Positions 14,488-36,952 of a DNA stretch of 43,945 nucleotides are shown here, piece by piece (the stretch's first letter is position 1; each line of letters opens with the position of its first letter). The notes beneath the pieces are model-generated. The model was not told the origin of the DNA and made no database searches. It saw only the letters and a program-made list of their open reading frames with translations. Source of the stretch: Candidatus Tenderia sp. Lineage in GTDB: Bacteria > Pseudomonadota > Gammaproteobacteria > Tenderiales > Tenderiaceae. Location of the stretch: positions 1-43,945 of the forward strand of contig JANOSY010000027.1 in the NCBI GenBank assembly GCA_031416075.1, written 5' to 3'. A program made the position numbers and the translations under genes.

Positions 14488-15339
14488 ATGAGTAAAGGTA
14501 TGGATTTGGAACTGGTTCTCCCAACGGGCAGCCTGGAAGCCTATCAGGCCGCCGTCTCCCGTATTGCGGTGCTGAGCGCCGAGGAGGAGCTGGAACTCGC
14601 CACCCGGTTACACCGTGATAATGATCTGGACGCAGCCCGTCGGCTGGTCCTCTCTCACCTCCGTTTTGTCGCCTATATTGCCCGCGGTTACCGTGGTTAT
14701 GGCCTGCCGGAGGCGGACTTGATTCAGGAGGGCAGTATTGGCCTGATGAAGGCGGTTAAACGGTTTGACTCGACTATGAACGTGCGTCTGGCCTCGTTTG
14801 CTGTGCATTGGATTAAGGCAGAGATCCACGAATATGTGTTGAGGAACTGGCGCATCGTCAAGGTGGCGACCACTAAAGCCCAGCGCAAGCTCTTTTTCAA
14901 TCTGCGTAAAGCCCGTTCACGCCTCGGCTGGATGACGCAGGAGGAGATTGAGGCGGTTGCCAATGATTTAGGGGTGACAACTGAAAATGTGATGGAGATG
15001 GAGGCGCGCCTCAACTCTCACGACGCCTCGTTTGATCCTTATGTGGGGGAGGGTGATGATGACCATTTTGGTGCCCCTGCTGGCTATCTTACCGATCAGC
15101 GTCTCGATCCTGCCATGGAGCTTGAGGAAGAGCAGTGGGCAGAGCAGAATGAGGCGCAGCTTAAAAACGCGATGGCGCAGCTCGATGAGCGCAGCCTCGA
15201 TATCCTGCATAGTCGCTGGCTGGCGGATGATAAGGCAACATTGCATGAGTTGGCGGATAAGTATGGGGTCTCTGCTGAGCGGGTCCGCCAGCTTGAGGGT
15301 AACGCCATTAAAAAGCTGAAGGCGGCATTTGTTGCCTGA
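14488..15339 (+). CDS. rpoH: RNA polymerase sigma-32 factor
   Basis: RpoH box region [24 protein letters not shown], region 4 [10 protein letters not shown]; lies after ftsX. Confidence 0.97.
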
Positions 15340-15444: not shown

Positions 15445-16905
15445 ATGTTTTTTAGTGACGACCGTAAACATTTTTTTCGCCCCCTCAACAGCAAATACCG
15501 CGAACAGATCGTGGAGTGTCTGCGAGAGCTTTACGCCCGTCTCTATAGTTCGGTGGCCGATTATCGCCGTGCCTTAAACCGTGAACAGCTGGTTGAAATC
15601 TTCCAGGAGGCGTTGGTGCGCGCGCCGCTGCTCGACGAAGATGTTGCTAACGAACATACGGCCCCAGCACGCAGTGAGCGCGAACAGGCCAACTGGATAC
15701 TCAACCAGCTGCTTGATTACGGTTGGCTCGAACGTCTTGTTGATGAGGCGACCTTGCAAAGCAGTTATGCCTTTACCCGCGTTGGCCGCCTCTTCACCCA
15801 GCCGATGGTCGAGACCGCCGGTGGCCGCTTCCGCACCCGTCATCGCAACACCCGTAACACCCGCAACGCGCTGCAATCGTTTCTCGACAAGGGCGAGGTC
15901 TACGACTTGCTCGACGCCTTTGAATATTCAGAGCGCATCATCAGCGACTTCAGCGACTTCAGCGACGTCATCGCCGAACTCGACGAACGCAAACGGCAGC
16001 TGGTACAGGAGGTGGAGGCGCAGCAGATCGTGCAGCGCGCCAGCGATGAGTTCTTCGACTTTATGGAGAAGCGCTTCATGCCCGACCTGGCGGTGCGCCT
16101 CTCTGCCGACAGTGTCGAAAAGTATCGCGACGAGATTCAAACGCTCATCAATAATGCCCGCCGCAAGCGCAAGGAGTTTAAGGCCGATGCCGAGCGTGAG
16201 TTGCGTAAGGTTGCACCGGAGCTGATTGGCGATCCCAAACGCTCGCTATACCTCACTGTGCTTGATGGTATTGAGAGTCGTATGCACAGCGCTGCTGAGA
16301 CTATGTTGCCGGCACTGCGTCACGCGCTCAACAGCTTCACCCGTCGTGCTGACATTATTATTCGCCAGCTCAGTTATTCCACCGCAGGTCATCAGAACAG
16401 ATTGTTGGAGATCTGCCAGCAGCTCTGCGAGCTGCCCGTAGAGGAGCAGGCACAGCGACTTGCCGCCGCTGGTGAGGCATTGTCATCGCTGAATGTTGCG
16501 ATGGTCGATCCTGGCGCACTGCGTATACACACTGGCCGCGTGCGGCGCGTAGTCAATACCACTGTTGAGGTCCACGGTGAAGTGGATCGCGAGTCGCGCA
16601 AAAATCTCTTCCTGCACCAGGCGGTGGAGAGTGCCTTTGCTGTGAATAGCCAGGCGCAGCGCGAGTACGTGGTGGCGGCATTGAGTGGCGGCCACCGCCT
16701 GCGTAGCCAAAATCTACCGGTGCATAATGCTAAAGAGTTGTTGATGAGTGCCCATGTGATTGAGCTGGGTGCTGCCGGCAACTCCAGTGAATACCGTTTT
16801 CAAATTGAGGCGACCGGGCAGTTGGTGAGCACCGACTATTTTGAGACGTGCGACGAGTTTGTCATCGAACTTAAAGAACAAGAGCAGGATAACCATGCTG
16901 AGTGA
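15445..16905 (+). CDS. jetA: Wadjet JetA / MksF kleisin-like subunit
   Basis: 486-aa helical protein with winged-helix-like N-terminus (FFRPL, LLDYGWLE); first gene of an operon with JetB-, JetC- and JetD-like ORFs. Call relies mostly on size and context. Confidence 0.8.
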   Translation: MFFSDDRKHFFRPLNSKYREQIVECLRELYARLYSSVADYRRALNREQLVEIFQEALVRAPLLDEDVANEHTAPARSEREQANWILNQLLDYGWLERLVDEATLQSSYAFTRVGRLFTQPMVETAGGRFRTRHRNTRNTRNALQSFLDKGEVYDLLDAFEYSERIISDFSDFSDVIAELDERKRQLVQEVEAQQIVQRASDEFFDFMEKRFMPDLAVRLSADSVEKYRDEIQTLINNARRKRKEFKADAERELRKVAPELIGDPKRSLYLTVLDGIESRMHSAAETMLPALRHALNSFTRRADIIIRQLSYSTAGHQNRLLEICQQLCELPVEEQAQRLAAAGEALSSLNVAMVDPGALRIHTGRVRRVVNTTVEVHGEVDRESRKNLFLHQAVESAFAVNSQAQREYVVAALSGGHRLRSQNLPVHNAKELLMSAHVIELGAAGNSSEYRFQIEATGQLVSTDYFETCDEFVIELKEQEQDNHAE

Positions 16906-17572
16906 AGCGCTGCGCGACAGACTGGCGCGCGAAAACATAACGCTTGAAGAGTTTCAGGAGTTACTGATTCGCCTGATGAATTACGGCGTTTTGAGTCGTC
17001 AGGAGAGTCAGACCGAACAGCAGCTGTATGACCGTTATCTGCGTAGTGCCGAATGGGTGGATGAGTATCTCAGCCTGCTCGGCATCCGTATTCATCACGA
17101 TCGTCGTTTTGAATATATTCGTCTCTATCCGCCGAGCAGCCGTATACCCGGTATGGACGAGGCGGGTGATAACGCCTTCAGTGGCAGCCTGCGCGCCCGT
17201 CTCAGTCAAAACGAAGTGGCGCTGATCCTGATGCTGCGCAGCCAGTACGATAAGGCGCTGCGTGAAGGCAAGGTTGATGAACATGGCTATGTCGCTGAGT
17301 CGATGGAGTCGATCAGCATTGCGCTAAAAAATCTGCTGGGTCGTACCCTGCCCGACAAAATTATGGAACGTCGTCGTCTCTTTCAGCGTCTGCGTCAGTT
17401 GCGTCTTGTGCAATACAATCAGGATGAGACACTGGAGAGTGGCGAAGGGTGGCTGAGGATTCACCCTATGATTGTTAGTTTTGTGGATGATGAGGCACTG
17501 CTGGCGCTAGAGCAGGGTGGTGCAGTAGCCGCATCTGGCAAGGGTGATGATGAAGAGGCTCAATTCTCATGA
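16895..17572 (+). CDS. jetB: Wadjet JetB / MksE (DUF4194-like KITE subunit)
   Basis: 225 aa; EYLSLLGIRI, LILMLRSQYD, LRIHPMI pattern; overlaps the jetA stop; RBS CAGGA before ATG 16895. Confidence 0.82.
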   Translation: MLSEALRDRLARENITLEEFQELLIRLMNYGVLSRQESQTEQQLYDRYLRSAEWVDEYLSLLGIRIHHDRRFEYIRLYPPSSRIPGMDEAGDNAFSGSLRARLSQNEVALILMLRSQYDKALREGKVDEHGYVAESMESISIALKNLLGRTLPDKIMERRRLFQRLRQLRLVQYNQDETLESGEGWLRIHPMIVSFVDDEALLALEQGGAVAASGKGDDEEAQFS

Positions 17573-17645
17573 ATGGAAATATCGTCTTGTCATTTCACTG
17601 TCCTAGTCTGGATGTTAATACGGGTATTAGAAATTGGGGGCTTAT

Positions 17646-19121
17646 ATGATGCTTGATAGGGTAAGGCTAGAGGCAACCGCGAAAATGGATCGGCGGCAGC
17701 GCTCCGAGCTTGGACAGTTCCTTACGCCATCAAACATAGCCAGATTTATGGCGACACTCTTTCGTCCTGGTAATTTCGACAACAACATGGAAGATGCGCG
17801 TCTTCTGGATGCAGGTGCAGGAGTGGGTTCTCTCAGCGCAGCTTTTCTGGAGCGTTGGAGCGATGGCGAATTTAAATTCCGATCTGTCTCTGCGACTGCT
17901 TATGAGGTTGACGATAGTTTGAGAGGGCATTTAACACAGACTCTGAAAAATTATGTTGATCGGCTTAAATTATCTGTTGCTATTTCAGGTGATGATTTTG
18001 TCGAGAGTGCGGTTAATCAGCTTCAGTTTCAAAGGGGTATGAGTTTTACTCATGCGATCCTAAATCCTCCATATAAAAAAATTTCCAGTCGTTCTCATCA
18101 CCGTTTGTTGTTGCGGCAGGCAGGGATAGAGACGGTCAATCTCTACACGGCTTTTGTGGCATTGGCTATCTCCCTGCTGACCCCTGGAGGCCAGTTGGTT
18201 GCAATTATCCCGCGTAGTTTTTGTAATGGCCCCTATTATCGTCCATTCCGTGAGTTTTTGATGAGGCAGGTGGCTATCCATCATATTCATCTCTTCGCCT
18301 CCAGAAACAAAGCGTTCAAAGATGATGATGTGCTACAGGAAAATATCATTCTGATGCTGGAGCGGGACGCCGAGCAGGGAGCCGTGAAGATATCTACATC
18401 AACAGATGACAGCTTTGCTGACTACATGGAACATGACCATCCATTTGATCGTGTTGTCTTCCCAGGTGATATTGAGTCTTTCATCCATGTGCCCACAACG
18501 CCCGAACATAGCGCGATGGAGCTGTCATCAGCCTTTGTTTGCTCACTGGCAGATATAGGCATGAATGTTTCAACGGGACCGGTTGTAGATTTCAGGTTGA
18601 AAGAATTTTTGAGAATGAGTCCCGAGTCTGGCACTGTTCCACTGCTTTACCCAGCACACTTTACGGGTCAAAGAGTTGAATGGCCTAAGGAGGGTATAAA
18701 AAAACCCAATGCCATGGTCCATAACTCAGAGACAGAGAAATGGCTCTATCCTAATGGTTTCTATGTTGTGGTCAGACGGTTTTCATCCAAGGAAGAGAAA
18801 CGGCGCATCGTCGCAAGCCTTGTGAGTCCTGCGTTATGCGATACCACGCATATAGGTTTTGAAAATCACCTGAACGTGTTTCATTATTCAAAACATGGGC
18901 TGTCAGAAGATCTTGCCTGTGGGCTGATGGTCTATTTGAACAGTACAACAGTAGATGATCACTTCCGGCGCTTTAGCGGACACACTCAAGTTAACGCAAC
19001 GGACTTGCGGCTTATGAAATATCCAAAGCGTAAGACGCTTGCTGAACTTGGTTGTTGGGCAAAGGAGCGTGGAGAGCTGACACAACAACAGATTGACGAA
19101 AAGGTGGGGAGTATCGCATGA
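17646..19121 (+). CDS. Type II N6-adenine DNA methyltransferase (gamma class, M.BsuBI/M.PstI-like)
   Basis: GQFLTP, motif I LLDAGAGVGSL, motif IV ILNPPY, NLYTAFV, PRSFCNGPY, STGPVVDFR, FENHLN, FSGHTQVNATDL. Confidence 0.93.
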   Translation: MMLDRVRLEATAKMDRRQRSELGQFLTPSNIARFMATLFRPGNFDNNMEDARLLDAGAGVGSLSAAFLERWSDGEFKFRSVSATAYEVDDSLRGHLTQTLKNYVDRLKLSVAISGDDFVESAVNQLQFQRGMSFTHAILNPPYKKISSRSHHRLLLRQAGIETVNLYTAFVALAISLLTPGGQLVAIIPRSFCNGPYYRPFREFLMRQVAIHHIHLFASRNKAFKDDDVLQENIILMLERDAEQGAVKISTSTDDSFADYMEHDHPFDRVVFPGDIESFIHVPTTPEHSAMELSSAFVCSLADIGMNVSTGPVVDFRLKEFLRMSPESGTVPLLYPAHFTGQRVEWPKEGIKKPNAMVHNSETEKWLYPNGFYVVVRRFSSKEEKRRIVASLVSPALCDTTHIGFENHLNVFHYSKHGLSEDLACGLMVYLNSTTVDDHFRRFSGHTQVNATDLRLMKYPKRKTLAELGCWAKERGELTQQQIDEKVGSIA

Positions 19122-20062
19122 AAAATGATGAAATAATTGCCGATGCCATCCAGATCCTCGTGCAGGTGGGCTTGCCTCGTGCACAGCAGAACGAACGTTC
19201 AGCACTCTGTTTATTGGCGCTGATAAATCTTACGCCTGAGAAAAAATGGCGTCAGGCGGAGGCCCCCCTCATCGGTATTACTCCAATCATGGATTGGGCG
19301 CGTGATCATTATAATAAAGACTACGCTCCGAATACTCGGGAGACAGTGCGCCGACAGACCATTCATCAATTTGTAGATACAGGCATTGCTCTCCGTAATC
19401 CCGATGACCCAGATAGGCCCGTGAATAGTCCAAAAACTGTTTATCAGATTGAGACGGAAACTTTAGTATTGCTAAAAGCCTATAGAACAAGAGCATGGAA
19501 GAGCCAGTTGGCGGTCTACCTTGCTACACACCAATCACTCACCGAGCGTTACGCCCGTGAGCGTGAACATAATCGCGTCCCAGTACAGATTGCGCCGGGC
19601 AAGAAACTTTGTCTTAGTTCTGGCGAACATAGTGTTTTGATTAGAAATATTATTGAAAAATTTGCGCCATGCTTTGTGCCAGGCGGCACGTTAGTGTACG
19701 TCGGCGATACCGGTAATAAATGGGGTTACTTCGATGATGCCATGTTGCGGGATGAGTTGGGGGTTGTTGTCGACGCCCACGGCAAGATGCCAGATGTTGT
19801 GCTCTATTACCCCGAGCGTAATTGGCTGTTGCTGGTGGAGGCGGTTACCAGTCACGGGCCTGTGGATGGTAAGCGACATCATGAGTTGGCGCGTCTCTTT
19901 GCCAAGGCTACGGCAGGCCTTGTTTATGTCACTGCCTTTATTGATCGTGCGGCGATGGCTCGTTATCTTCCGGAGATTGCCTGGGAGAGTGAAGTGTGGG
20001 TTGCTGATGCACCCTCTCATCTCATTCACTTTAACGGTGAACGGTTTCTCGGCCCTTACTGA
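19118..20062 (+). CDS. BsuBI/PstI family type II restriction endonuclease
   Basis: YAPNTRETVRRQTIHQF, NSPKTVY, LSSGEHS, catalytic KMPDVV...LVEAVTSHGP, IAWESEVW, HLIHFNGERFLGPY; ATGA overlap with the methyltransferase. Confidence 0.93.
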   Translation: MKNDEIIADAIQILVQVGLPRAQQNERSALCLLALINLTPEKKWRQAEAPLIGITPIMDWARDHYNKDYAPNTRETVRRQTIHQFVDTGIALRNPDDPDRPVNSPKTVYQIETETLVLLKAYRTRAWKSQLAVYLATHQSLTERYAREREHNRVPVQIAPGKKLCLSSGEHSVLIRNIIEKFAPCFVPGGTLVYVGDTGNKWGYFDDAMLRDELGVVVDAHGKMPDVVLYYPERNWLLLVEAVTSHGPVDGKRHHELARLFAKATAGLVYVTAFIDRAAMARYLPEIAWESEVWVADAPSHLIHFNGERFLGPY

Positions 20063-20080
20063 TTTTGACAGGATTTTATA

Positions 20081-23000
20081 ATGTTTCTTAAAAGTTTTGT
20101 CTTCGTCAACTGGGGTAACATCCCCAGCCTCGAGTTTGAATTTGGTCCGGTAAATCTTTTCTCTGGTGGTAACGGTTCAGGCAAGACCACGGCGGCCGAT
20201 GCGATTCAGACCATCATGACCGCAGCGCACGAAAATCTGTTCCAGTACAACCCCGGGCAAGATGAGACAACGCAGCGCGGTCGTGGTGGTAAACGGGTAC
20301 GTACACTCTCTTCATACGTACTGGGTTGTGACGACGGCAGCTATGCGCGGCTTGATCCTACGGATGGTTATCTGGTGGCGGTATTTCATCCTACTGAAGA
20401 TGAGACGGCTGATCCTTTCACTGCCATTATTGCCGTACGTGCCTGGCTCGATCTCTCCGGTAGTAACAGCGTGGCGCGTCAAGACGATGCAATCTTTTTT
20501 ATTCTGCCCGGTGAACAGCTGTCGCTGAAACATTTTGTGCGTGAAGACAAAGTGGGTAAATATGTAACGCCACTTGATGAGCTACAAACGCTGTTGATCG
20601 CAGAGTTTGGCAAACGCGCCGTTGAAAAATACGATACCAAACGCGCCTATCTGCGTCGTCTTTATGGAGCCTTGCGCGGCTTGCGCGATGCGGTGGCGGA
20701 GCAGGAGGCGATGGCAGCAGCACGGGCCTTTTCACGCTTCATGGCCTACAAGCCGGTGCAGAGTATTAACAAGTTTGTCTCTGAAGAGATTCTGGAACGT
20801 AAAGATCTGGGTGAGGCCATTCGCTCCATCTCCAGTCAGCTTAAAACCATTCACGCCATGGAGCGCGATGCGGCGAAGCTGAAAGATTCAATCACCGTTC
20901 TTGAACAGGCGCGGCAGCAGGGTCAGCGCTACATCGAGCAGTGGATCGATCTCAATACCCTCGACTATACCTTGGCGCAACACGGCTATCAGCAGCGCCA
21001 GCAGGAGTATCTGAGTGCCAAAAAATTGCAGGAGGAGTTGCGTCGCAATCTCAAGGATAGCGATGAGGAGCTGGCCCTCAGCAAACAGCGTAGTGAACAG
21101 GTACACGATCAGCTGGTGACGCTGGAGGCGCAACGTATCGGCGTGCCGGCATTGCAGCAGAAGGATGAGCTGGAGACACGGCTGCGGAAAGAGGAAGGGG
21201 TGCTGGTCGAACAGGCCAAATTATTGCTGATTCAAGACAACACATTACAAAATAATATTCAGTTTAGCAGTCAGATTAAAAGTGATCTGCTCGCCGCTGA
21301 CTTGATCGAAGATCTGCCACAAGTTGCCGACCTTAAAACGGCATCACTCTGCAAACAGCTGCTGGAGCAGGGTAAACGTGGCGAGATCAACTTTCAGTCG
21401 ATGTTGCAGCGTGATATGACCAACGACCTTGCCGCGCTGGAGCTCCATCTCGATCAAGCCCGTACCATTCAGCAGCTGCACAACCAGTGGCATGACCACT
21501 GGCACAGCGCTGATTTACAGGGCGGTGTGACACTGCGTGATCAGCTGGCGCGCCTGGCGCACAGCCGTGAGCGCAGCTACAGTGACCTTGATGAACAGTA
21601 CCGCAGTAAACGCCGCGAGATCGAACGGCTTGAGTCTCATCAGGTCAGTTATCCGGGGTATGTCGAGCGCGCTATTGCTGAGATCAGACGCCACTGCCCT
21701 CAGGCTGATCCACGTGTGCTCTGTGATCATATCGAAGTGAAAGATGCACAGTGGCAGTCGGCCATCGAAGGTTATCTGGGAGGCGCACGTTTCTCTATTC
21801 TTGTCGAAGCGGCCCATGAGGCTGAGGCGATTCGCATCGTCAGGCGGATGCCAGGGCGCGATAATAAAGCACGTATCATCCAGGGTGAAAAGGCGCGGCA
21901 AGATGCCGAGCGCATGAGTGTTGATAGTGACTCTATCCTTCATGTATTGGAGTTCAGCCATGCCGTTGCCCGTCACTATGTGATGGCCAGTTACGGCACT
22001 GTCTTGCGGGTGAAGGATGCTGAGCAGTTACGCCATACCCGCCGTGGGTTGATAGCTGACGGCATGGCCTCTGGTAACTACAGCATGTGGCGCTGTGATC
22101 TGCCCGACAGCGAGTTGGTGTTTGGTATTGCCGCCCGTGAACGGGCGCTCAAGGCAAAACTGCAGGAGCTGGAGACTATTCAGGTCAAACGTAATAGCGC
22201 CAGTGAACGGATGCAGCGTGGTGCTGTATTGATTAAGGCGGTAGATGGCCTGGTACCATTACGTTATGCCGATGTTATCACCACACTGCTAGCAACACGG
22301 CGTGAGCTGCAAACCCTTGAAGCGCTTTTGGAGCAGCTTGATCTTACCGAATTTGAGGCCCTTGAAGAGCGACTCACACAGCTGCGTGATGACGAGAAAA
22401 AGTGGCGCAATCGTGAGCACGAGCTGATTTTATCCATGGGGCAATTCACAGAAAAATTGAGCGATACCGACAGACGTTGTCATGATCTGAGTGAAAAACA
22501 GGAGAAAAATCGCGCTGCGGTGGATGAGTGGGAAAATACGTTACGCACACTTGCGGCGGTCTGGCCCGATTTTGAGGTTGATATCCGACTCAATCACGCT
22601 GACTACGAGGCGCGTGAGTTGAATCTTGAATTTGCCGCACAGCAGCGCAAAGAGATTGAGAGTCAACTTCATAGCAGCGAACGGCGCATGGGTGATGCGT
22701 TGCAGACACACAATCAGCAATGTCGTCCCGGTGACTCGGTTATCTACTACGGCTTTGACGGTAATTACGACAGCCGACTCTTCAAGACGATCTGTGGCCT
22801 GCAACTTGATATCGATCGTGTCTATAACATCCTCAAGAACAACATCCTGGTGGAGAAGCACGAACAGTTGATGTTGTTGAAGGATAGCTTTAACAGTGCC
22901 TTTGTCACCAACCTCTGTCACTCCATTCATCAGGCGATCAACGATGGTAAACGTCAGGTCGATCTGCTCAACAAAGAGCTGCAACATCACAAATTTGGTG

Positions 23001-23713
23001 CAGATCGTGAGACCTTCCGTTTTGCCAGTGATTGGATACCGGAGTATCGCGACTACGCCCGCTTCTTTGAAGAGGTAGTGAAGTTCCCAGCGCTGGGTGA
23101 TGATGTCAGTCTGTTTGATGCAGAGCTGTCAGCAAAATCAAAAACAGTACGCGGCCAGGTGATGACCATGCTGCTGGCAGAGGATGAGATCAAGGCCTTT
23201 GCCGATCTTGAACGTATTGCCGATTACCGTAACTACCGTCTCTACGAAATCTATAAAGAGGTTGAAGGTAAACCGCCCATTGCATTGAGTGAATATGGGA
23301 CAGGCTCAGGCGGGCAGCTCGAAACTCCGGCCTATATCATTCGTTCGGCAGCGATCACCTCGGCCTTTAGATTTTCTGAAGGCAGCAGCCATCTGCGTAT
23401 GGTGCTGGTGGATGAGGCCTTTTCTAAAATGGACGAGACCCGCTCACGGGAGGTGATTCACTACCTCACCAATAGCCTTGGCCTACAGCTGCTCTTTATT
23501 ATGCCAACCAGTAAATGTGGTCCCTTTATGGACCTTATAAGCAATGAGTTTATCTTTGCTAAATGCCCGAGTGAAAAACCACGCGGTCAGCTGCTGACAC
23601 GTGTCTTTGTCGATCGCAAAAAATGTAACGAAGAGAAGATAAAAACCCTTTGGGCCAACCATCGGCGCATGGTTTATCAACAGGCCGAACTTGATTTTAT
23701 GGATATGGTGTAA
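20081..23713 (+). CDS. jetC: Wadjet JetC / MksB SMC-family ATPase
   Basis: VNWG start, Walker A GGNGSGKT, long coiled coils with central hinge (AIEGYLG..RF), signature GSGGQ, Walker B LVDEAFSKMD; 1210 aa. Confidence 0.92.
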   Translation: MFLKSFVFVNWGNIPSLEFEFGPVNLFSGGNGSGKTTAADAIQTIMTAAHENLFQYNPGQDETTQRGRGGKRVRTLSSYVLGCDDGSYARLDPTDGYLVAVFHPTEDETADPFTAIIAVRAWLDLSGSNSVARQDDAIFFILPGEQLSLKHFVREDKVGKYVTPLDELQTLLIAEFGKRAVEKYDTKRAYLRRLYGALRGLRDAVAEQEAMAAARAFSRFMAYKPVQSINKFVSEEILERKDLGEAIRSISSQLKTIHAMERDAAKLKDSITVLEQARQQGQRYIEQWIDLNTLDYTLAQHGYQQRQQEYLSAKKLQEELRRNLKDSDEELALSKQRSEQVHDQLVTLEAQRIGVPALQQKDELETRLRKEEGVLVEQAKLLLIQDNTLQNNIQFSSQIKSDLLAADLIEDLPQVADLKTASLCKQLLEQGKRGEINFQSMLQRDMTNDLAALELHLDQARTIQQLHNQWHDHWHSADLQGGVTLRDQLARLAHSRERSYSDLDEQYRSKRREIERLESHQVSYPGYVERAIAEIRRHCPQADPRVLCDHIEVKDAQWQSAIEGYLGGARFSILVEAAHEAEAIRIVRRMPGRDNKARIIQGEKARQDAERMSVDSDSILHVLEFSHAVARHYVMASYGTVLRVKDAEQLRHTRRGLIADGMASGNYSMWRCDLPDSELVFGIAARERALKAKLQELETIQVKRNSASERMQRGAVLIKAVDGLVPLRYADVITTLLATRRELQTLEALLEQLDLTEFEALEERLTQLRDDEKKWRNREHELILSMGQFTEKLSDTDRRCHDLSEKQEKNRAAVDEWENTLRTLAAVWPDFEVDIRLNHADYEARELNLEFAAQQRKEIESQLHSSERRMGDALQTHNQQCRPGDSVIYYGFDGNYDSRLFKTICGLQLDIDRVYNILKNNILVEKHEQLMLLKDSFNSAFVTNLCHSIHQAINDGKRQVDLLNKELQHHKFGADRETFRFASDWIPEYRDYARFFEEVVKFPALGDDVSLFDAELSAKSKTVRGQVMTMLLAEDEIKAFADLERIADYRNYRLYEIYKEVEGKPPIALSEYGTGSGGQLETPAYIIRSAAITSAFRFSEGSSHLRMVLVDEAFSKMDETRSREVIHYLTNSLGLQLLFIMPTSKCGPFMDLISNEFIFAKCPSEKPRGQLLTRVFVDRKKCNEEKIKTLWANHRRMVYQQAELDFMDMV

Positions 23714-23716
23714 ACA

Positions 23717-24844
23717 GTGATTGAAAAACCACGCTGGCTGGATGATGAGCCAGAGATTGCAGCGCTGTTGCATGCATTTATCGATAAGCTCGATAGAACG
23801 CCTGCTGAGCGCTGGAAAGAGGTGCCGGAGTTAAAACTAACGGCGCTGCTCTGTCCAAAGCTGTTCAGGCAGGATGAGGCAGCGGATAGAAGTTGGATAT
23901 TGCTTAAACAACTTGATCCGCTTGGCTGCTTGTTGATCATCACCAAACCCAGACGAGCCCCGTTTGATCCTGAATACAAAGATGCACGCCTGCTGTTCAA
24001 TCTTGATTTTGAAGAGACGCTGCGGGAGTGGTTGCAGCGGCCACACAAACCATCATTGCAGCGTGAATGGCAGGAGACTGTGATACAACGCGCCCATCAC
24101 TTCCCTGGTGAGGTGTTGCTGTTGCAGATACGCCCTATTATGGTTTCCGGCCGTTCGGAGGTGGAGATCCTTGAAGGGTTTGTGGCTATCTCGCACTATC
24201 AATCACAACGATTGACGCTGACACAGCTGAGCGCCCGCTGTTTCTGGGGGCAATCAAAATTTCTTGATGGCAGAGAAGATTTGATCACGGCGCTCTATCC
24301 CGATATTCAGCTTACACCGCGTCAGATTATCATCAATGTCTATCTGCCTGCGCGGATCGATGGTGTTCTGATGATTGAAAATCAGGACAGTTATTGTAGT
24401 GCCATCGATGGTAGACCAGCGACAGCGGCTAATTTGGCGCTGGTCTACTGTGCCGGTTTTCGTGGCAGTGCACAACGCATCCGCAGTCGTGAAGGGGTTA
24501 GTTTTCACTATCAAGGTGAATGCAGTCGCCAGTCTGAATTTGAGGAGTGGTGGTTTGGTGATGTACCTAGCAGCTATCCACTCTACTTCTGGGGCGATCT
24601 CGACTATAGCGGCATGGCCATTCTCAAGGCACTACGACAACGTTTTGAAACGATAGCGGCGTGGCAGCCGGGCTATGAACCGATGTTGCAACAGCTGCAC
24701 GAAGGGCATGGCCACACTGCGCTGCAGAGCAATAAGGAGGAGCAAATCGATCCGCGCGAAACAGGGGCTGATTATGCGGATACTACGCTGTTACCGGCAT
24801 TACGCTCGGCTGATCTGTTTGTGGATCAGGAGACAGTATTTTGA
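23717..24844 (+). CDS. jetD: Wadjet JetD / MksG TOPRIM nuclease
   Basis: QLSARCFWGQSKFL, MIENQDSY (TOPRIM Glu), WGDLDYSG (DxD), terminal DQE; 3 nt after jetC. Confidence 0.9.
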   Translation: MIEKPRWLDDEPEIAALLHAFIDKLDRTPAERWKEVPELKLTALLCPKLFRQDEAADRSWILLKQLDPLGCLLIITKPRRAPFDPEYKDARLLFNLDFEETLREWLQRPHKPSLQREWQETVIQRAHHFPGEVLLLQIRPIMVSGRSEVEILEGFVAISHYQSQRLTLTQLSARCFWGQSKFLDGREDLITALYPDIQLTPRQIIINVYLPARIDGVLMIENQDSYCSAIDGRPATAANLALVYCAGFRGSAQRIRSREGVSFHYQGECSRQSEFEEWWFGDVPSSYPLYFWGDLDYSGMAILKALRQRFETIAAWQPGYEPMLQQLHEGHGHTALQSNKEEQIDPRETGADYADTTLLPALRSADLFVDQETVF

Positions 24845-24886: not shown

Positions 24887-25738
24887 ATGGTCGATAGCCA
24901 TAAAGGCATTATTCTCTCCCTGCTAGGTTTCAGCTTGCTCTCCTTTGGCGATGCCACTATTAAGTATCTAAGCAGTTACTACACCACCTATTCGCTGGTG
25001 CTCTATAACTCCCTGTTTGGGTTGCTGGTGCTGTTACTGTTGTCGCCGTGGTTGGGGGGTATCAAAAACACGCTGAAAGATAGCCGTATCACGTGGCACT
25101 TGTTGCGTGGTGCGTTGGTCTTTGTGCAACTGTCGCTGATTGTTTACAGCTTTAGCCATCTACCCTTGGCTAAGGCGTATGCCATCGCATTTGTTGCGCC
25201 ACTATTTTCTGCATTGCTGGCGATTCCGTTGTTAAGGGACCGTCTTAGCTGGCACCATGTGATAGGTATGGGGGTAGGTTTTCTGGGTGTGCTTACTGTT
25301 TTGCGTCCGGGCATTATACCTATGGAGCTGGCTTCTATTGCGGCACTGCTATCGGCACTGTTTTTCTCATTGGTTAACATTACTGCGCGCCACATGCGTA
25401 GTAGTACTCATACGTTAATGTCGTGGTCGTTTTATCCTCATCTGGTCATTATTGCCATATCGTTACTGATTTTTAATGCAGAGCTGCAGTGGCTGCGTCA
25501 GGCAGATGTTGGGTATTTACTGCTCATGGGGGCTGTTTCGGCGCTGGGTGGAATCTGTCTGGCCCGAGCCTTTGCTTATGCCAATACCGCGACAGCGGCC
25601 TCGTTTCACTACGTGCAGATGCTTTGGGGTGTGGGATTAGGTTACTTTATTTTTGGAGAGGTGATCGATTTTTGGACGGCCATAGGTGCAGTGGTGATTA
25701 TTGTCAGTGGTATATGGCTGATCAGGATGGAGCGTTAA
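24887..25738 (+). CDS. DMT/EamA family transporter
   Basis: About 10 TM helices in two EamA repeats; LPLAKAYAIAFVAPLF, VLRPG, GYFIFGE. Confidence 0.9.
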   Translation: MVDSHKGIILSLLGFSLLSFGDATIKYLSSYYTTYSLVLYNSLFGLLVLLLLSPWLGGIKNTLKDSRITWHLLRGALVFVQLSLIVYSFSHLPLAKAYAIAFVAPLFSALLAIPLLRDRLSWHHVIGMGVGFLGVLTVLRPGIIPMELASIAALLSALFFSLVNITARHMRSSTHTLMSWSFYPHLVIIAISLLIFNAELQWLRQADVGYLLLMGAVSALGGICLARAFAYANTATAASFHYVQMLWGVGLGYFIFGEVIDFWTAIGAVVIIVSGIWLIRMER

Positions 25739-26086
25739 CGTATTTGTGGTTAGTGTGGTGTTATGTATTGGAGAGTCTTTTTACAATTTCATCAAGCCCA
25801 TTTTTAGCGGAGAAGACATATGATGGTAATAAATCATGTGTATATTCCGTCGTTTCAGATGGCAGAGCTAAAGGTGTGTTTCTGCTTGAGTGACTCTCCT
25901 TTGCCCATGATAGTTAATGGATTTCAGATGTGGAGAGGGCCGGTTTGTTACATTTATTAACATAATTAGCTGTTTATAAGTATAATAGCAGCCCTAAAAA
26001 ATTCAGAATGCTCAGTCAGGGATGTAAGCATTGTTTCTTGTTTGGCTAAGTGACAAGCCCTGTTTTGTGATGTGAGTCCTATCAGA

Positions 26087-28321
26087 ATGATTGAAGTTGT
26101 TAAGTCTGTTGTTAGTACCCCTACTGCTGTTGCGCCTGCCACCATTAATGAAACCCACTGGAAACCAGAACGGGAGATTTTTCTTGGCTGGTGCGGCATG
26201 GTTTTTACTCTTATTGCCAGTACTGTGGTTGTTTGGGAGCAGTCTGTCCTAATTAATCAGCAGATTGATAGTGCGCGCTGGGGGGATGTAGTGATGCATC
26301 TGTCATTTGCGCTGATTGTTGTTGCGTTGATATATGGCAGCCTGGTTTATCAGGTGACCCGTTTGGGGTATCTGAAACGTCGTCAGCAGCACCGCCCCGT
26401 TCACGATGATCTGCTCAACTCCACTTTTATGGAGCGTAACAGTGTTGAGCCGCTGGCCCTCCTGGTGCCTTCATATAAGGAAGAGCGCCGTATTATTTTT
26501 CAAACATTAATGTCGGCAGCACTTCAGGAGTATCCCAATCGTCGAGTTGTATTGTTGATTGATAACCCACCCATGCCCAAAGATATGGTTGATGTTGCGT
26601 TATTGGCTGAAGCACGGGCACTGCCGCAGCAGATCACTGCCATGTTGAAAAAAGCAGGGGCGTGTTATCAAACAGCGCTGGTTGACTTTTTGGCGCGTAA
26701 AGGGGATGGTCCCCTGAATTTTTCAGCAGAGGTGACAGTCCTAGTACAGCTATGGTGTCAGGCCGCTGAGTGGTTTGAAGTGCAGGCACGTGAATATGCC
26801 ATCAATGACCATACGGATTTTTTGTATGTAGACAAAGTGTTGAAAGGGCGTGCTGTCAGCCACAGGCGGCAGGCGCAACATCTGCGGGAGAGTTTTGACA
26901 ATAGCCATCCTCTATCAGAAGCGGTTATTGCCAGCCATTATTACAAGCTGGTCGCACTATTTGATTGCGAAGTAAGCAGTTTTGAGCGTAAGCGCTATGA
27001 AAATTTATCACACGAACCGAATAAAGCGATGAATCTCAATAGCTATATAGGGTTGGTAGGACGATGTTTTAGTGAACGAAAAACGGAACAGGCACTATTT
27101 CTTGACGAGGTGGTGAAAGAGAAGGCTGAGCTGACATTTCCCACTTGTCGCTATTTTGTTACGCTGGATGCAGACAGTATTTTATTGCCGGAGTATGCGT
27201 TACGCCTGATTCACGTTATGGAACAGCCAGGTAATGAACGTATTGCGGTGGCACAAACACCGTATAGCGCTATCCCCGGCTCTCCTTCTGAGCTTGAGCG
27301 TATTGCCGGCGCGACGACTGACATGCAGTATATTATTCATCAGGGATTTACCCACCACAACGCAACCTATTGGGTGGGTGCTAACGCGTTGTTGCGTTAT
27401 GAAGCGCTACAGGAGATTGTGATCACTACGGAAGAACGTGGTTATCCGGTGCAGCGTTTTATTCAGGACCGTACAGTAATAGAAGATACTGAATCCAGTG
27501 TTGATCTGGCCATGCGTGGTTGGACGTTGTACAACTATCCAGAGCGCTTGGCATACAGCGCTACTCCTCCTGATTTTGGTTCGCTGCTTATTCAGCGGCG
27601 GCGCTGGGCTAATGGCGGCTTGATTATATTGCCAAAACTATTGCGTTATTTAGCAAAAGCACCTCATCGTAAAATGACAGAGGGGCTGTTGCGAGTTCAC
27701 TACCTGATCTCGATAGCGGCTGTAAATATTGGGCTGCTTATTCTGTTGGCATTCCCCTTTTCCAGTAGCATTAACAGTATCTGGCTACCACTGAGTGCAT
27801 TGCCCTACTTCTTTCTTTATGGTCGCGATATGGTGTTATGTGGTTATAAAGCATCTGATTTATTACGTGTGTATGCACTCAATCTATTGATGATTCCCGT
27901 CAATCTGGGCGGCGTCCTGAAATCGATTCAACAAGGCATTACCGGAAAACAGATCCCCTTTGGGCGTACGCCTAAGGTTGAAGGACGTACGGCAGCGGCA
28001 CCACTATACGTTCTCGCTGCTTATCTGCTTTTTGCACAATGGGTTACGGGTGCTGCATTTGATGTTTATGAAGGGCATATTGCACACGCGATTTTTGCTG
28101 CATTAAATGCAACACTGTTATTGTATGGTATTCGTGTATTTATTGGCTATAAAGAGAGCTGCCAGGATCTGTTTTCCGCCAGACTAAAAGTATCATCACC
28201 GACAGTACGGATCATTCGGGTCTCGCAAAATAATGATGTCTCTGTTGTTGATGTGAATCTTGATAGCATGGCTGTTAATGAGGCGACGGGTAATGTAAGA
28301 GTGGCTTCAAAAAATGGCTGA
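26087..28321 (+). CDS. Processive GT2 glycosyltransferase (cellulose-synthase-like)
   Basis: Two N-terminal TM helices; VPSYKE, LLID, KAMNLN, TLDADS, AQTPY, VIEDT, QRRRW; C-terminal TM helices. Start could be GTG 26072 or ATG 26087. Confidence 0.9.
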   Translation: MIEVVKSVVSTPTAVAPATINETHWKPEREIFLGWCGMVFTLIASTVVVWEQSVLINQQIDSARWGDVVMHLSFALIVVALIYGSLVYQVTRLGYLKRRQQHRPVHDDLLNSTFMERNSVEPLALLVPSYKEERRIIFQTLMSAALQEYPNRRVVLLIDNPPMPKDMVDVALLAEARALPQQITAMLKKAGACYQTALVDFLARKGDGPLNFSAEVTVLVQLWCQAAEWFEVQAREYAINDHTDFLYVDKVLKGRAVSHRRQAQHLRESFDNSHPLSEAVIASHYYKLVALFDCEVSSFERKRYENLSHEPNKAMNLNSYIGLVGRCFSERKTEQALFLDEVVKEKAELTFPTCRYFVTLDADSILLPEYALRLIHVMEQPGNERIAVAQTPYSAIPGSPSELERIAGATTDMQYIIHQGFTHHNATYWVGANALLRYEALQEIVITTEERGYPVQRFIQDRTVIEDTESSVDLAMRGWTLYNYPERLAYSATPPDFGSLLIQRRRWANGGLIILPKLLRYLAKAPHRKMTEGLLRVHYLISIAAVNIGLLILLAFPFSSSINSIWLPLSALPYFFLYGRDMVLCGYKASDLLRVYALNLLMIPVNLGGVLKSIQQGITGKQIPFGRTPKVEGRTAAAPLYVLAAYLLFAQWVTGAAFDVYEGHIAHAIFAALNATLLLYGIRVFIGYKESCQDLFSARLKVSSPTVRIIRVSQNNDVSVVDVNLDSMAVNEATGNVRVASKNG

Positions 28322-28395
28322 TACAGAGTAATGATTGCTGTGTTAAGAAGGGATGGATTCTACATGGCCTGTTTAGCGAATGGGCTGTTATCAAA

Positions 28396-29910
28396 ATGAG
28401 ATGTATGAAGGTATATAGGTTTTGTTCTGTGCTTTTTTTCGCTGCGGTCATTTCTAATGCCTCTCTGGCAGATGGTCAGGCGTATGATGTTGATAGCGAG
28501 GTTAAAAAAGCCGCCGACCTTTGTGATAAGGGTGACTACTCATCAGGGTCTAAAATATATATTAAATTGTTATACGAAGGGTTGGCCAGTTTGTTACCCA
28601 TGGAGCGCTTTAATCTAATTAAAGTATTGGCTGAGTGTGATAGACCGTTGTTGGCCATTGATGAACTGAAGCGACTCTTGAAGAGTGAGCCACAGGTTGT
28701 TGAGGCAGAGCTTCTGTTGGCCAAGCTGCTCTCCTGGAATGGGTATCTTTTAGAGGCAGAGGCTGTAGCAAAAAACATTCTTTCCTCTTCTCCAAAACAT
28801 TATGAGGCACGACTGGTATGGGCAAACGCTGCTAATTGGCGTGGTGATTACGCGAGTGCATTGCCGCTCTACAGGGGTGTTTTGAGTGAAAAAGAGAATT
28901 TTGATGCCCGTTTGAATTACACCTATGCGTTGCTGGCGACTGCCGATTATCATGAGGCTAAAATTAGCCACTGGTGGTTATATGCCGGTAGTAAATCAAA
29001 CAAACATACAGTATTTGATGTCAATCAGGCGCTTATTGACCAGTCTAAAGAAAGCATCTCCTGGAAAACTGAATATCTGGCGGAGCAGGGAGATAGTCGA
29101 CGTTTGAATCAGCGGCTGTCGTTTAATGTCCCCTTCAATTTTTCTAACTTGTCAGTCACTCTTCGTCATCAGCAAACCTCAGCGCCTTGGGTTGTGGATG
29201 TGCAGGCACTGGATGAAATGAAGGTGGCCGGAAATTGGCGACTGAACAGTGGTTGGAAGGTGTCTGGAGAGCTGGGACGGGTTGTTGCCACAACTCAAAA
29301 CGAGAGCCATTTAAATGCTGAGATAGGAAGTTTATTGCAGATGAACCGCTGGCTCTGGAATGTGACACTACGCAGTGAACTCTTTGATAGCAGTGCTGCT
29401 ATTCTCGCTAAAAATATTCAACGCCAGTATGTTTACTCGGACGTTCAGTATACGTTTAATGACTGGTTCCGGATGAATGGCGACTTGCAAGCGACGACTT
29501 ACTCGGATGTTAACCGCTCTTATGAAGGGAGTATTCACTTTCGTTATGCATTGCGTTTACTGAAGCCCCGCATTGAGATTGGTTATAAATATTTTGAACA
29601 GGGTTTTCAATATCAGAAGAGCGATTATTATTCACCCGATAAAAGTAGTTTAGGGCAGTTAACATTAGGTTTTAATGGCTCAAGTGAACAGGTTTATATG
29701 TCCGGCGAGTTTTTTTACGGACGCCAGAAAACATCAATGCAAAACTTTAAGCAGCTGGACAATGTGGCAGGGTTGACGTTGAATCTGAATTACAGTGTGA
29801 GTCAGATGTTGAGTATTAATGGCTCATTGGAAGGAGGGGATTACGCCCTGGGTGTTCCCAATGGTTATTATTACTATATGGCTACTGTTGGTGTCTCTCT
29901 TTTCTTTTAA
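28396..29910 (+). CDS. TPR plus beta-barrel outer-membrane protein (YaiO/PgaA/BcsC-like export protein)
   Basis: Signal peptide (..ASLA), TPR-like helices (LAKLLSWNG, AANWRGDY), C-terminal half of alternating aromatic beta-strands ending in Phe. Confidence 0.75.
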   Translation: MRCMKVYRFCSVLFFAAVISNASLADGQAYDVDSEVKKAADLCDKGDYSSGSKIYIKLLYEGLASLLPMERFNLIKVLAECDRPLLAIDELKRLLKSEPQVVEAELLLAKLLSWNGYLLEAEAVAKNILSSSPKHYEARLVWANAANWRGDYASALPLYRGVLSEKENFDARLNYTYALLATADYHEAKISHWWLYAGSKSNKHTVFDVNQALIDQSKESISWKTEYLAEQGDSRRLNQRLSFNVPFNFSNLSVTLRHQQTSAPWVVDVQALDEMKVAGNWRLNSGWKVSGELGRVVATTQNESHLNAEIGSLLQMNRWLWNVTLRSELFDSSAAILAKNIQRQYVYSDVQYTFNDWFRMNGDLQATTYSDVNRSYEGSIHFRYALRLLKPRIEIGYKYFEQGFQYQKSDYYSPDKSSLGQLTLGFNGSSEQVYMSGEFFYGRQKTSMQNFKQLDNVAGLTLNLNYSVSQMLSINGSLEGGDYALGVPNGYYYYMATVGVSLFF

Positions 29911-29940
29911 CTGTGGCCTTTTAGATTGGAAGATATTTGA

Positions 29941-29980
29941 CTCTCTCCACGAGCGGTATACGTTCCGTTTGTGGAGAGGG
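29941..29980. terminator. Hairpin between convergent genes
   Basis: CTCTCTCCACGAGCGG ... CCGTTTGTGGAGAGGG stem with G-U pairs; no strong U-tract. Confidence 0.5.
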
Positions 29981-29997
29981 TGCCTATTGTTGATATG

Positions 29998-30582
29998 TTA
30001 TGGAACGATGTAGGTGTAGTCGCGATTCTGGAAATCGATAACGGCAGTTACTCCCGCTGGGACCATCTCTACACCCGGGATTAGATTGCTGCTGACCCAG
30101 CCACTACCACGCATGGTGTTTTGGCACATATAGACCTTTATGCCTTTGGCTATCAGTGCGGAGATCATGTCATCACTGGGGTTGGCAACACCGTAGGTTG
30201 CAGTATAGGCGGCATCGTTAAGCAACCAGCGGGCACCTGCACCATAGCCAACAATAATAGCTTTAAAATCTTTTCTTGACACCATGTCGTAGTTGTCGGT
30301 GTAGTCGTTATAGATGTTGTTGACGTTTAATGTTTGTTGGCTCCGCCCATTTCTTGGGTTTAAGTCGCTATTGTTCATTGCGATAACGATTTTTAAATCT
30401 TCACGTTTAGCTATGCACAAGGTTGCATCACCAGAGCCTACACCAAATAGTGCGTCTGCACTGGTGGTGACAACTTCAGGACAGGTTGAGTTTTTTAATT
30501 TCTTAAAGCTGGAGTCCGCCAGGGTGGCAGTGCTAACGCAAGCTAATAACCCGAGCATGATGATCTGTCTGTTTTTCAGCAT
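29998..30582 (-). CDS. Exported DsrE-family protein
   Basis: Signal peptide (..TATLA), IVGYGAG, LIAKGIKVYMCQNTM, LIPGVEMVPAGVTA; RBS GGAG upstream of ATG 30582. Confidence 0.85.
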   Translation of the reverse strand: MLKNRQIIMLGLLACVSTATLADSSFKKLKNSTCPEVVTTSADALFGVGSGDATLCIAKREDLKIVIAMNNSDLNPRNGRSQQTLNVNNIYNDYTDNYDMVSRKDFKAIIVGYGAGARWLLNDAAYTATYGVANPSDDMISALIAKGIKVYMCQNTMRGSGWVSSNLIPGVEMVPAGVTAVIDFQNRDYTYIVP

Positions 30583-30804
30583 AAAAGGTATCTCCATATA
30601 ATTGATGTGGGCTACATGCCGCCTATATTCCATTCCGCGAATATAAGCAAACTCTGTAAACTATAGCAGTGATTGGCTGGTTTGACAGAGTGAAAGCCCA
30701 ATAATTTTATTAACTAATCTTAATAAGCTGTCGATTTTTTTCATGATGAAGTGGTGGCCAGGGGTTGTATATGACTGTGATGTCTGAGCAGAAAATAATA
30801 TTTT

Positions 30805-32256
30805 CTATCTGATAATGTTGTTGATGAAGTGAGGGCAGAGACTGTCTTCAATGGCATCTGCTATTCGATTTATGCCCGCTTCGCGTAGTCCGTGATAATC
30901 GATCTGTTCAGCGTTTAGAAGACCTGCCCATTTTAGTAATGACTGGCAGGCGTTGGGGGACTCAAACAGTCCATGCAGGTAAGTGGCAATGATCTGTTTG
31001 TCATCAGATATCGCGCCATCATTTTGCCCATTCAGGGTAACTAACGGGGTATTAAGTGCAGGGCCGTGGCTGATGCCAGCGTGGATTTCGTAACCGTGTA
31101 TCTCAACGTTGTTCAGTAGCAGTTTGCCACTGACATTACGTAGCTGTTTCTTCTGTTGCAGTGTGGTGCTGAAGTTCAGAAGGCCAAGGCCAGGAGTGGT
31201 GCCTGCTGTGCCTTCAACACCTTCTGGGTCATGGATGGCATTGCCAAGCATCTGTAGTCCGCCACAGATACCTAGTAGCTTCCCACCGTAGCGTAGATGA
31301 CGTTGAATGGCACTTGCCCATCCCTGTTGATGTAACCAATGTAGGTCATCGCGTACATTTTTGCTGCCAGGCAGTATGATGAGGTCGGCGGTTGGAATGG
31401 TTTGATTGGGGCCGATGAACTGGATATCAACCTGAGGATGGTAACGTAGTGGGTCAAAGTCGGTATGGTTGCTGATACGAGGCACTACGGGTACGACTAT
31501 TTTCAGCTGTTTCCCATCACCGATTATTTGTTGTGACTGTATGGCATCCTCAGCATCAAGATGGAGGCCGTGTAAGTAGGGAAGAACACCAAGGACCGGC
31601 TTTTGTGTATCGTCTTCCAGCCAGTCAAGACCGGATTGGAGGAGCTTTATATCACCACGAAAGCGGTTGATGACAAATCCCTTGATCCGCTTCTGTTCTG
31701 ATGTGGATAATAGCGCCAATGTACCGTGTAGATGGGCAAAGACACCACCACGATCGATATCGGCAATGAGAATGACCGGACAATCCACGGCCTCTGCAAA
31801 CCCCATGTTGGCAATGTCGCGGTCGCGCAGATTGATCTCTGCAGGGCTGCCCGCACCTTCTACCAGGATGAGATCGTACTGTTGTTGCAGCCGGTTATAA
31901 GATTCGAGCACTGCTCTCATCGCGATGGATTTGTAGTTGTGGTACTCATTGGCCTGCATGTCATGAATGGCATGGCCGTGAATGATCACCTGTGCGCCGG
32001 TATCACTGTTAGGTTTGAGCAGCACTGGGTTCATGTCGCTGTGTGGCTGCAATCCAGCTGCCTGGGCCTGTAAGGCTTGTGCGCGACCAATCTCTCCACC
32101 ATCAATGGTGACGGCGCTGTTAAGTGCCATATTTTGGGGTTTGAAGGGGGTAACATGAATGCCACGTCGGTGAAACAGGCGGCAGAGTCCGGTGACCAGA
32201 GTGCTTTTTCCTGCATCAGATGTGCAGCCCTGAATCATGAGTGTTGGTTTGTTCAT
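30805..32256 (-). CDS. cobQ: Cobyric acid synthase
   Basis: [65 protein letters not shown]. Confidence 0.96.
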
Positions 32257-32339
32257 GGTGCTATTTTGACATAGCAGGTGATCAAAGGGTTGTCTGCGTT
32301 ACACTTCTTAATTGAAATATGTTTAGCTGGGATTGATAC

Positions 32340-33221: not shown

Positions 33222-33284
33222 AGGTTTATAAACGGTGAGGCTGGTCGATACATGACATGTCGGTATGCATGAGGAGCGGCCACA

Positions 33285-35024: not shown

Positions 35025-35049
35025 TTTTTATTTATTAAAAATAATAGTC

Positions 35050-35085
35050 AAAAGACAACGGCACATTCATGTGCCGTTGTCTTTT
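35050..35085. terminator. Bidirectional intrinsic terminator
   Basis: Perfect 17-bp inverted repeat AAAAGACAACGGCACAT-tc-ATGTGCCGTTGTCTTTT between convergent genes. Confidence 0.88.
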
Positions 35086-35096
35086 ATGGATGTATA

Positions 35097-36812: not shown

Positions 36813-36952
36813 GGGCTCTCCTTAGACTATGATGATGGTTTTTATGCCTTGCCTAATGGGTTGGAATGGATTCCTGGGCAGTATAAATCGTAGCTATGAA
36901 TAGTCACAAAAGTATCACGCACCCTTCACAATAAAATGGCTGTTTTTATCTG

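Follow-up and report, generated by a model that had tools for sequence, protein, structure and literature searches.

How did a complete type II restriction-modification (R-M) pair come to lie between the second and third genes of a Wadjet operon, and do the two now work as one system? The question is raised by a 43,945-nt window of Candidatus Tenderia sp. contig JANOSY010000027.1 (the window is the whole stretch that was analysed, and all coordinates refer to it). Here six co-oriented open reading frames (ORFs) on the + strand, at 15445-24844, stand in the order jetA, jetB, M, R, jetC, jetD, where M denotes the methyltransferase and R the endonuclease of the inserted pair, as genes and as proteins alike. 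A sequence-only reading of this DNA had proposed a designed two-layer hybrid and, as an alternative, a mobile or addictive R-M cassette that had landed in the operon. It is the alternative that fits best: we consider it likely, taken as a whole, that a mobile R-M cassette has become embedded in the Wadjet operon, where it would probably be co-transcribed with the jet genes and act additively with them.

The first step towards an answer comes from a DNA search of 40 related genomes for the jet locus. In four other species of the genus, rpoH-jetA-jetB and jetC-jetD-eamA are contiguous at the same chromosomal site, and homology of the window to all four of these loci ends at 17520-17522 and restarts exactly at 20081, the A of the jetC ATG. 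The closest relative, with jet genes 91-96% identical to those of the window, has 36 nt in place of the window's 2,558 nt (17523-20080). These 36 nt are the last jetB codons plus an 11-nt overlap with jetC, so that the jetB stop of this relative lies inside the jetC start (ATGTTTCTTAA). Given these breaks in homology and the contiguous jetABCD of four species, the segment 17523-20080 is shown to be an insertion and not the ancestral architecture, and the cassette is a presence/absence polymorphism within the genus. The inserted DNA also changes the end of JetB. The genus relatives' JetB ends in ...[DH]VS, its stop overlapping the jetC start, and the window's JetB has acquired an acidic tail of 16 residues that lies beyond the conserved DUF4194 core (matched at ORF residues 43-220). 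As to its source, the third-position GC content is 0.45 in M and 0.48 in R, against 0.52-0.66 in the jet genes and a genome GC of 0.528; R was found in only 1/17 genomes of the order; and relatives of R occur on 87 plasmid and 98 phage records. Together with the existence of M-R units free of jet genes (see below), these features point to a foreign origin. The closest JetC relatives in public species genomes are from metagenome-assembled Gammaproteobacteria, some of them Candidatus Tenderia.

The features of the locus and its immediate flanks are as follows, with the evidence for each in parentheses.

14488..15339, + strand: rpoH-like sigma factor gene, the upstream flank (Pfam Sigma70_r2/r4; syntenic in four same-genus genomes).
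15445..16905, + strand: jetA, type I Wadjet kleisin-like subunit, 486 aa (PF18982, E 1.3e-24; PADLOC JetA1, E 1e-218, residues 1-482/486).
16895..17572, + strand: jetB, DUF4194, MukE-like, 225 aa (PF13835, E 6.5e-29, full profile 1-165; PADLOC JetB1, E 1e-98).
17523..20080, + strand: inserted segment of 2,558 nt, made up of the new jetB 3' end, a 73-nt spacer, M, R and an 18-nt spacer (homology break).
17523..17572, + strand: replacement JetB C-terminal tail, AVAASGKGDDEEAQFS, plus stop (comparison with genus relatives).
17569..17649, + strand: 26-codon mini-ORF, MNGNIVLSFHCPSLDVNTGIRNWGLI, across the jetB-M spacer (read from the sequence).
17646..19121, + strand: M, type II N6-adenine DNA methyltransferase, gamma class, Eco57I-type domain, 491 aa (PF07669; PADLOC MTase_II, E 5e-206).
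19118..20062, + strand: R, type II endonuclease of the BsuBI/PstI/SdaI family, 314 aa (PF17728, E 5e-54; PF06616, E 6e-61; PADLOC REase_II, 3e-147).
20081..23713, + strand: jetC, SMC/MukB-like ABC ATPase, 1210 aa (Pfam AAA_29/SbcC_Walker_B; PADLOC JetC1, E 0, residues 1-1209).
23717..24844, + strand: jetD, Toprim nuclease subunit, 375 aa (PF09983, JetD_C; PADLOC JetD1, E 3e-104).
24887..25738, + strand: EamA-family transporter gene, the downstream flank (PF00892; syntenic in genus relatives).

The ORF coordinates, the orientation, the nested arrangement and the gene identifications of the sequence-only reading are all borne out by the ORF list, Pfam and PADLOC; PADLOC typing, which it had suggested as a check, matched JetA1, JetB1, MTase_II, REase_II, JetC1 and JetD1 over almost their full length, with E values from 1e-98 to 0. 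Its spacings could be reproduced once the starts were set by homology. The jetB ORF is open from a TTG at 16841, and homologues of 224-226 aa that begin MLSE place its start at the ATG at 16895, while the M ORF spans 17634-19121 and by homology starts at the ATG at 17646. With these starts jetA and jetB overlap by 11 nt, 73 nt separate the jetB stop from the M start, M and R overlap by ATGA, 18 nt lie between R and jetC and 3 nt between jetC and jetD. The 73-nt spacer is bridged exactly by the mini-ORF, which shares an ATGA with its neighbour at either end, its ATG overlapping the stop of jetB and its own stop the start of M. From its layout, this mini-ORF may be a translational coupler or may be there by chance.

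Both systems are complete as judged by the signatures of their families, and the intact catalytic motifs that had been read from the letters are present in all the enzymes. On the R-M side, M has LLDAGAGVG (the S-adenosylmethionine motif I, at about residue 58) and NPPY at ORF residue 144, within ILNPPY[KR]K, which is present in 66/68 of the M-homologue alignments that cover it. The motifs of R are GKMPDVVL...LLVEAVTSHGPV, with GKMPDV in 80/80 of the R homologues and E[AS]VT..GPV in 79/80. R aligns over its full length to SdaI (PDB 2ixs, E 3e-75, residues 10-314) and has both domains of its family, the N-terminal helix-turn-helix (HTH) and the C-terminal catalytic domain. We thus have a two-domain endonuclease with the family motifs adjoining an N6-adenine methyltransferase. 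On the Wadjet side, JetA and JetB are accompanied by a JetC with Walker A (GGNGSGKT, residues 29-36) and Walker B (MVLVDE, at about 1107) and by a JetD with ENQD at about 221-224 and GDLDYSG at about 292-298, which we take to be the catalytic Toprim acidic residues (E and DxD). The one departure from the type I layout is that jetB is not directly followed by jetC, as 2,508 nt (17573-20080), holding M and R, lie between the jetB stop and the jetC start. In the NCBIfam models R, JetB and JetD received no name and M only sub-threshold matches; no solved structural relative of M was found, and no paralogues of any of the six proteins in their own genome. PstI and BsuBI cut CTGCAG and SdaI cuts CCTGCAGG, and the enzymes of the PstI family cut unmethylated sites of the CTGCAG type. 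The genome has 1,056 CTGCAG sites, an observed/expected ratio of 0.60 that ranks 12/64 among the hexamer palindromes; since the under-representation is only mild, nothing was concluded from it on specificity or residence time.

Could the nesting be the work of the assembler? A metagenome assembly chimera, in which the R-M pair of another organism was joined to a Wadjet contig, would be in keeping with a genome assembled in 95 contigs and with the different GC content of the insert. It would likewise suit the depths in run X3, which comes from a study other than the probable source: one of its contigs has 17522 and 20081 connected by the 36 nt known from the sister genome, i.e. an empty site, at a depth of 74, and pieces of M and R that are 98-99% identical to the window stand at a depth of about 25. 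However, contigs of run X2, a second sample from the same study as the probable source, span 17026-18229 and 19905-21056 with 0 differences and so bridge both junctions. Moreover, run X8, from a third study (Logan contigs), holds a 2,219-nt contig that starts within M, crosses R and reaches 125 nt into jetC, at about 95% identity (115 differences), and the jetB frame continues into the insert with a tail that recurs in four other database proteins or contigs. Misassembly had been named beforehand as something that would undo the observation, and the X2 contigs speak directly against it; we give the chimera next to no credence, and the nested arrangement is real DNA. As for X3, that community may contain both filled and empty alleles, or else a second carrier of the cassette. 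Run X4 had a word share of 0.40, yet almost nothing from it was placed on the cassette.

An insertion into an operon might also be expected to do damage, and one could imagine that jetB has been uncoupled from jetC, JetB altered and the Wadjet system left to decay, with only the R-M pair functional. The 11-nt jetB/jetC overlap, which is kept in 47/70 relatives, is indeed lost and the JetB tail replaced, and degraded Wadjet loci do occur elsewhere: the locus L204 has its JetC split over two ORFs, and L193 has a TAA within JetB and lacks the JetC head, both signs of decay. Nevertheless, jetA-D of the window are free of stops and frameshifts and are all of full length against their profiles, and their omega values relative to the closest relative (0.025-0.10, with 0.03 for jetA and 0.025 for jetC) show strong purifying selection on the jet genes. 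DUF4194 does not include the replaced residues, which belong to a tail region that varies freely among relatives; jetC retains a ribosome-binding site (AGGA, 8 nt ahead of its ATG); and the arrangement persists on two backgrounds (see below). A disrupted, decaying Wadjet system is thus quite improbable.

The jetB-jetC junctions of other Wadjet loci were surveyed in two sets. The close set comprises 78 JetC-related loci from other species (L018-L095), in 70 of which the jetB-jetC junction could be measured. The exact 11-nt overlap is found in 47 of the 70, a further 15 range from a 1-nt overlap to a 28-nt gap, and seven have gaps of 111-558 nt; the last, L054, is an artefact, its apparent jetB-jetC fusion being false (there is an NN in the junction). 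A gene-sized insert at jetB-jetC was present in none of the 70, and a homologue of M or R in none of the 78 loci. The distant set was drawn from 401 genomes of the phylum, 45 of them with JetB including the window's own; the other 44 gave 45 loci, 44 of them evaluable. A JetC-like ORF starts within 92 nt of the jetB stop in 40/44, whereas L193, L205, L212 and L214 have no intact JetC-like ORF downstream and so are uninformative. A gene-sized insert followed by jetC was seen in 0/44 evaluable distant loci, and M or R in 0/45. The same question can be put from the side of the guest. Among 80 metagenome loci with a related endonuclease, M lies directly upstream of R in 78 (the other two are too short to judge), and jet genes occur within the flanks of none.

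These figures (0/70 close and 0/44 distant junctions, 0/114 in all) argue against a general cargo hotspot at jetB-jetC, which the sequence-only reading had entertained. They bear as well on the designed hybrid, which we have recast as a selected and integrated two-layer system in which co-regulation, or an interplay of methylation and cleavage with loop extrusion, gives more than additive protection. There is something to be said for it: the six genes are intact, co-oriented and tightly spaced; jetB is brought to an in-frame end, the insert stops exactly at the jetC ATG and the mini-ORF spans the gap from the stop of jetB to the start of M; the arrangement has been kept on two diverged backgrounds; and the nearest M outside the association is only 67% identical. 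But jetABCD is uninterrupted in the four other species of the genus, which lack the arrangement, as do 114/114 evaluable junctions elsewhere and 80/80 related R-M loci; empty and filled alleles coexist within lineages; and there is no known mechanism that links the two activities. The designed hybrid is not supported, and for these reasons we regard an integrated system as improbable.

Some side observations from the close set concern the jet junctions themselves. The 11-nt jetB/jetC overlap (of the ATGTTTCTTAA type) is common to many families and is a strikingly conserved coupling signal; as the jetB stop falls inside the jetC start, JetB ends in ...VS and JetC begins with MFLK. Cargo at other jet junctions of close relatives is rare. 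In L036 other cargo is embedded in Wadjet at a different junction: a co-oriented pair encoding HTH/DUF433 and PIN_10 proteins, toxin-antitoxin-like (L036:4940-6080), sits in a 1,443-nt gap between jetC and jetD. In L041, 5.2 kb lie between jetA and jetB (L041:4018-9306); genes for a short-chain dehydrogenase and for a cNMP-binding protein run there on the opposite strand, and two co-oriented ORFs of 366 and 635 aa match nothing in Pfam or PADLOC. In L042 the jetA-jetB interval holds a YkuD gene in opposite orientation (L042:1781-2504), and an unknown 182-aa ORF lies between jetC and jetD (L042:6796-7481). No match came from a PADLOC scan of 9 proteins, namely seven of the cargo ORFs of L036, L041 and L042 together with the small ORFs at the junctions of L060 and L084. 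Finally, the JetC relatives of L039, L065 and L092 have no jetA or jetB in the 5-10 kb upstream, where an STT3-like transferase, a GAF-PAS cyclase and an amidohydrolase are found; these are rearranged or partial Wadjet loci.

Although the insertion is rare, it is not confined to the genome of the window, and uniqueness, which had been named as the mark of a chance event, is not what we find. The second background is a JetB body of the type of G001, another species of the genus whose own junction is empty. Three JetB proteins (P0008, P0128 and P0129) carry the insertion-type tail, with one or two substitutions, on this G001-type body, which is 88-89% identical to the JetB body of the window; P0128 matches P0127, the protein encoded exactly in the G001 locus, at 207/208 body positions. 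An 11,556-nt Logan contig is reported for JetB P0128, M P0254 and R P0003, and a 6,135-nt contig for JetB P0008 and M P0132. The X8 contig described above matches in length the contig reported for the R variant P0006, a single residue distinguishing the latter from P0003. Among side observations, another R variant, P0005, is 90% identical, and four further JetB variants of the genus (P0011, P0012, P0013 and P0017) end in ...EQHS, ...EPLS or ...QLS in place of the overlap-type ...VS, their tails being of a related but more diverged type; the jetB genes of these four apparently do not overlap jetC, and something may follow them.

The divergence of the cassette and of its surroundings differ markedly between the two backgrounds. 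For the cassette the difference amounts to 5-6.5% in the proteins and to about 5% in the DNA (from the one X8 contig), while the jet genes of the two backgrounds (G000 vs G001) are 74-85% identical, with dS of 0.67-1.59. In a collection of 5.8 billion proteins, the nearest relative of M is 93% identical and the next 67%; the next-nearest endonucleases to R are 73% identical. Because the cassette is far less diverged than its flanks, the simplest reading of these comparisons is that it passed between the two lineages after their divergence, and likewise that both filled and empty alleles are segregating in two lineages or more. Up to the very insertion the flanks appear native: those of the window are closest to its own sister up to both junctions, and P0128 keeps the G001 type as far as 16 residues ahead of the junction, while its residue at the junction is of the cassette type. 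It follows that the exchange was resolved in short conserved blocks or by an unseen mechanism. The insertion is in any case lineage-restricted, occurring in two related lineages of one genus, and is not a widespread hybrid system.

With regard to expression, the sequence-only reading had found no terminator and thought the genes probably co-expressed, and this has held up as far as the new spacers are concerned. In a crude scan neither of the two new spacers has a promoter-like or terminator-like site; the low-stringency terminator scan does return sites within coding regions (a count of 20, compared with 10.9 +/- 3.1 for shuffled sequence). In view of this and of the tight junctions, the six genes probably form one jetA-jetB-M-R-jetC-jetD transcript driven from the jetA promoter.

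The mobile-cassette interpretation can now be set out in full. A foreign 2.56-kb type II R-M cassette would have entered a type I jetABCD operon at the jetB/jetC junction; that the insertion replaced 36 nt, gave JetB a new tail and left six intact, co-oriented genes is shown by the comparisons above. The cassette would then have spread between Wadjet backgrounds, likely via recombination in the short conserved blocks formed by the jetB end and the jetC start. M and R would be transcribed with the jet genes from the jet promoter. By analogy with their families, M would mark CTGCAG-type sites of the host and R would cut unmarked incoming DNA, while JetABCD would extrude loops and cut small circular DNA regardless of its sequence, the two systems acting independently and additively. 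The cassette may be regarded as a selfish, addictive guest that would make the whole locus harder to lose.

Several points weigh against this interpretation or some part of it. The ends at 17523 and 20080 show neither terminal repeats, direct or inverted, nor a target duplication, and no recombinase was found, though the window was not scanned for integrases. The left-junction segment (17500-17660) had no match in related R-M loci or elsewhere in the genome, and a plasmid megablast of the whole locus gave no match either. With native flanks on both backgrounds, the left-hand crossovers of an ordinary homologous exchange would have to fall within about 48 nt, which leaves room for a site-specific mechanism. 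That JetB, M and R lie together on the second background is drawn from the matching lengths and sources of contigs, plus one bridging contig. Co-transcription is deduced from the spacing and from the lack of promoter or terminator matches in the spacers, and the mild deficit of CTGCAG does not establish the recognition site that the R-M pair is predicted to have. The lost jetB-jetC coupling and the new JetB tail could impair Wadjet, and the omega values cover the whole branch and not only the time since the insertion.

A variant of the cassette interpretation grants the guest a greater degree of adaptation. The R-M pair would be a module adapted to Wadjet operons, using the operon as an expression platform and a landing pad and guarding the locus in return. 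Such a cassette would bring its own in-frame jetB 3' end and end precisely at the jetC start codon; it may be chained translationally to jetB via the 26-codon ORF, and would use the promoter of the host operon and move between orthologous Wadjet loci of different species at an identical position; and its R-M activity would cover linear or large DNA that is invisible to Wadjet. We put this forward tentatively, as a possibility that is on balance unlikely.

For the embedded cassette as such there are precedents. Defence systems nested within Hma, BREX, DISARM and type I R-M hosts have been reported, 96.7% of the embedded genes being co-oriented with the host system (bioRxiv 10.1101/2024.01.29.577857). 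Like them, the present locus has a complete known system nested in the same orientation between the genes of a multi-gene host; unlike them, it does not recur over many independent host loci. In that paper, as far as its accessible text goes and supplements aside, Wadjet figures only in ATPase and Toprim domain comparisons, and compared with the hosts it describes, embedding in Wadjet is rare (0/114 other junctions). R-M units are also known to insert into operon-like gene clusters (PMC2993543), and as with the mobile R-M units described there and in PMC2853133, we have a bare R-M pair with no linked integrase or transposase, inserted in an operon and patchy among relatives. In contrast to what the available parts of these two sources describe, there is no long target duplication or flanking repeat here, and the same insertion boundaries are found on two diverged host backgrounds. 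A full-text literature search that did not cover the supplements of the embedding paper found no published report of an R-M system inside Wadjet.

Each system taken by itself largely conforms to its type. The Wadjet locus resembles the type I systems (JetABCD / MksBEFG / EptABCD) in its four full-length subunits with intact ATPase and Toprim motifs, and related Wadjet loci in its flanking synteny and jetA/jetB overlap, and it differs from type I Wadjet in the 2.56 kb that interrupt jetB-jetC, the lost overlap and the new JetB tail. The R-M pair is like others of the BsuBI/PstI/SdaI family in having a two-domain endonuclease with an Eco57I-type gamma methyltransferase directly upstream, and in belonging to a family common on plasmids and temperate phages; it is unlike them in its position within another defence operon, where the 73-nt spacer shows no apparent promoter belonging to the pair. 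JetABCD has been described as restricting small circular DNA independently of sequence (bioRxiv 10.1101/2022.10.04.510915), and in Clostridium cellulovorans a type II R-M system and Wadjet are reported to be separate plasmid barriers in one host (PMC12287153). From the latter case and from what is known of both families, additive and independent action would be expected here too.

The surroundings of the locus call for few remarks. Further upstream of the rpoH-like gene are two M16 peptidase genes on the opposite strand and then ftsY, ftsE and ftsX, and no tRNA genes were found in the window; the locus is ordinary chromosome. On the 3' side, the GC content is lower over most of 25000-38500 (0.43-0.49, against 0.53 for the genome), a stretch with genes for a family-2 glycosyltransferase (26072-28321) and a TPR protein (28396-29910) and a DsrE-like gene, and this stretch may be another acquired region.

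What the locus adds is a new host-guest pair for a known nesting phenomenon, with Wadjet now documented as a host. Considering that its components are ordinary members of their families and that nesting had already been described, our view of how either system works is unchanged. Of added interest is that two backgrounds carry the cassette at a base-precise position and that filled and empty alleles coexist in nature. Such natural alleles in close lineages offer a ready comparison for the loss of the jetB-jetC coupling and for the additivity of the R-M pair, and the movement of a bare R-M pair between orthologous operons, with base precision and no visible mobility genes, is a hint as to how R-M systems may spread.

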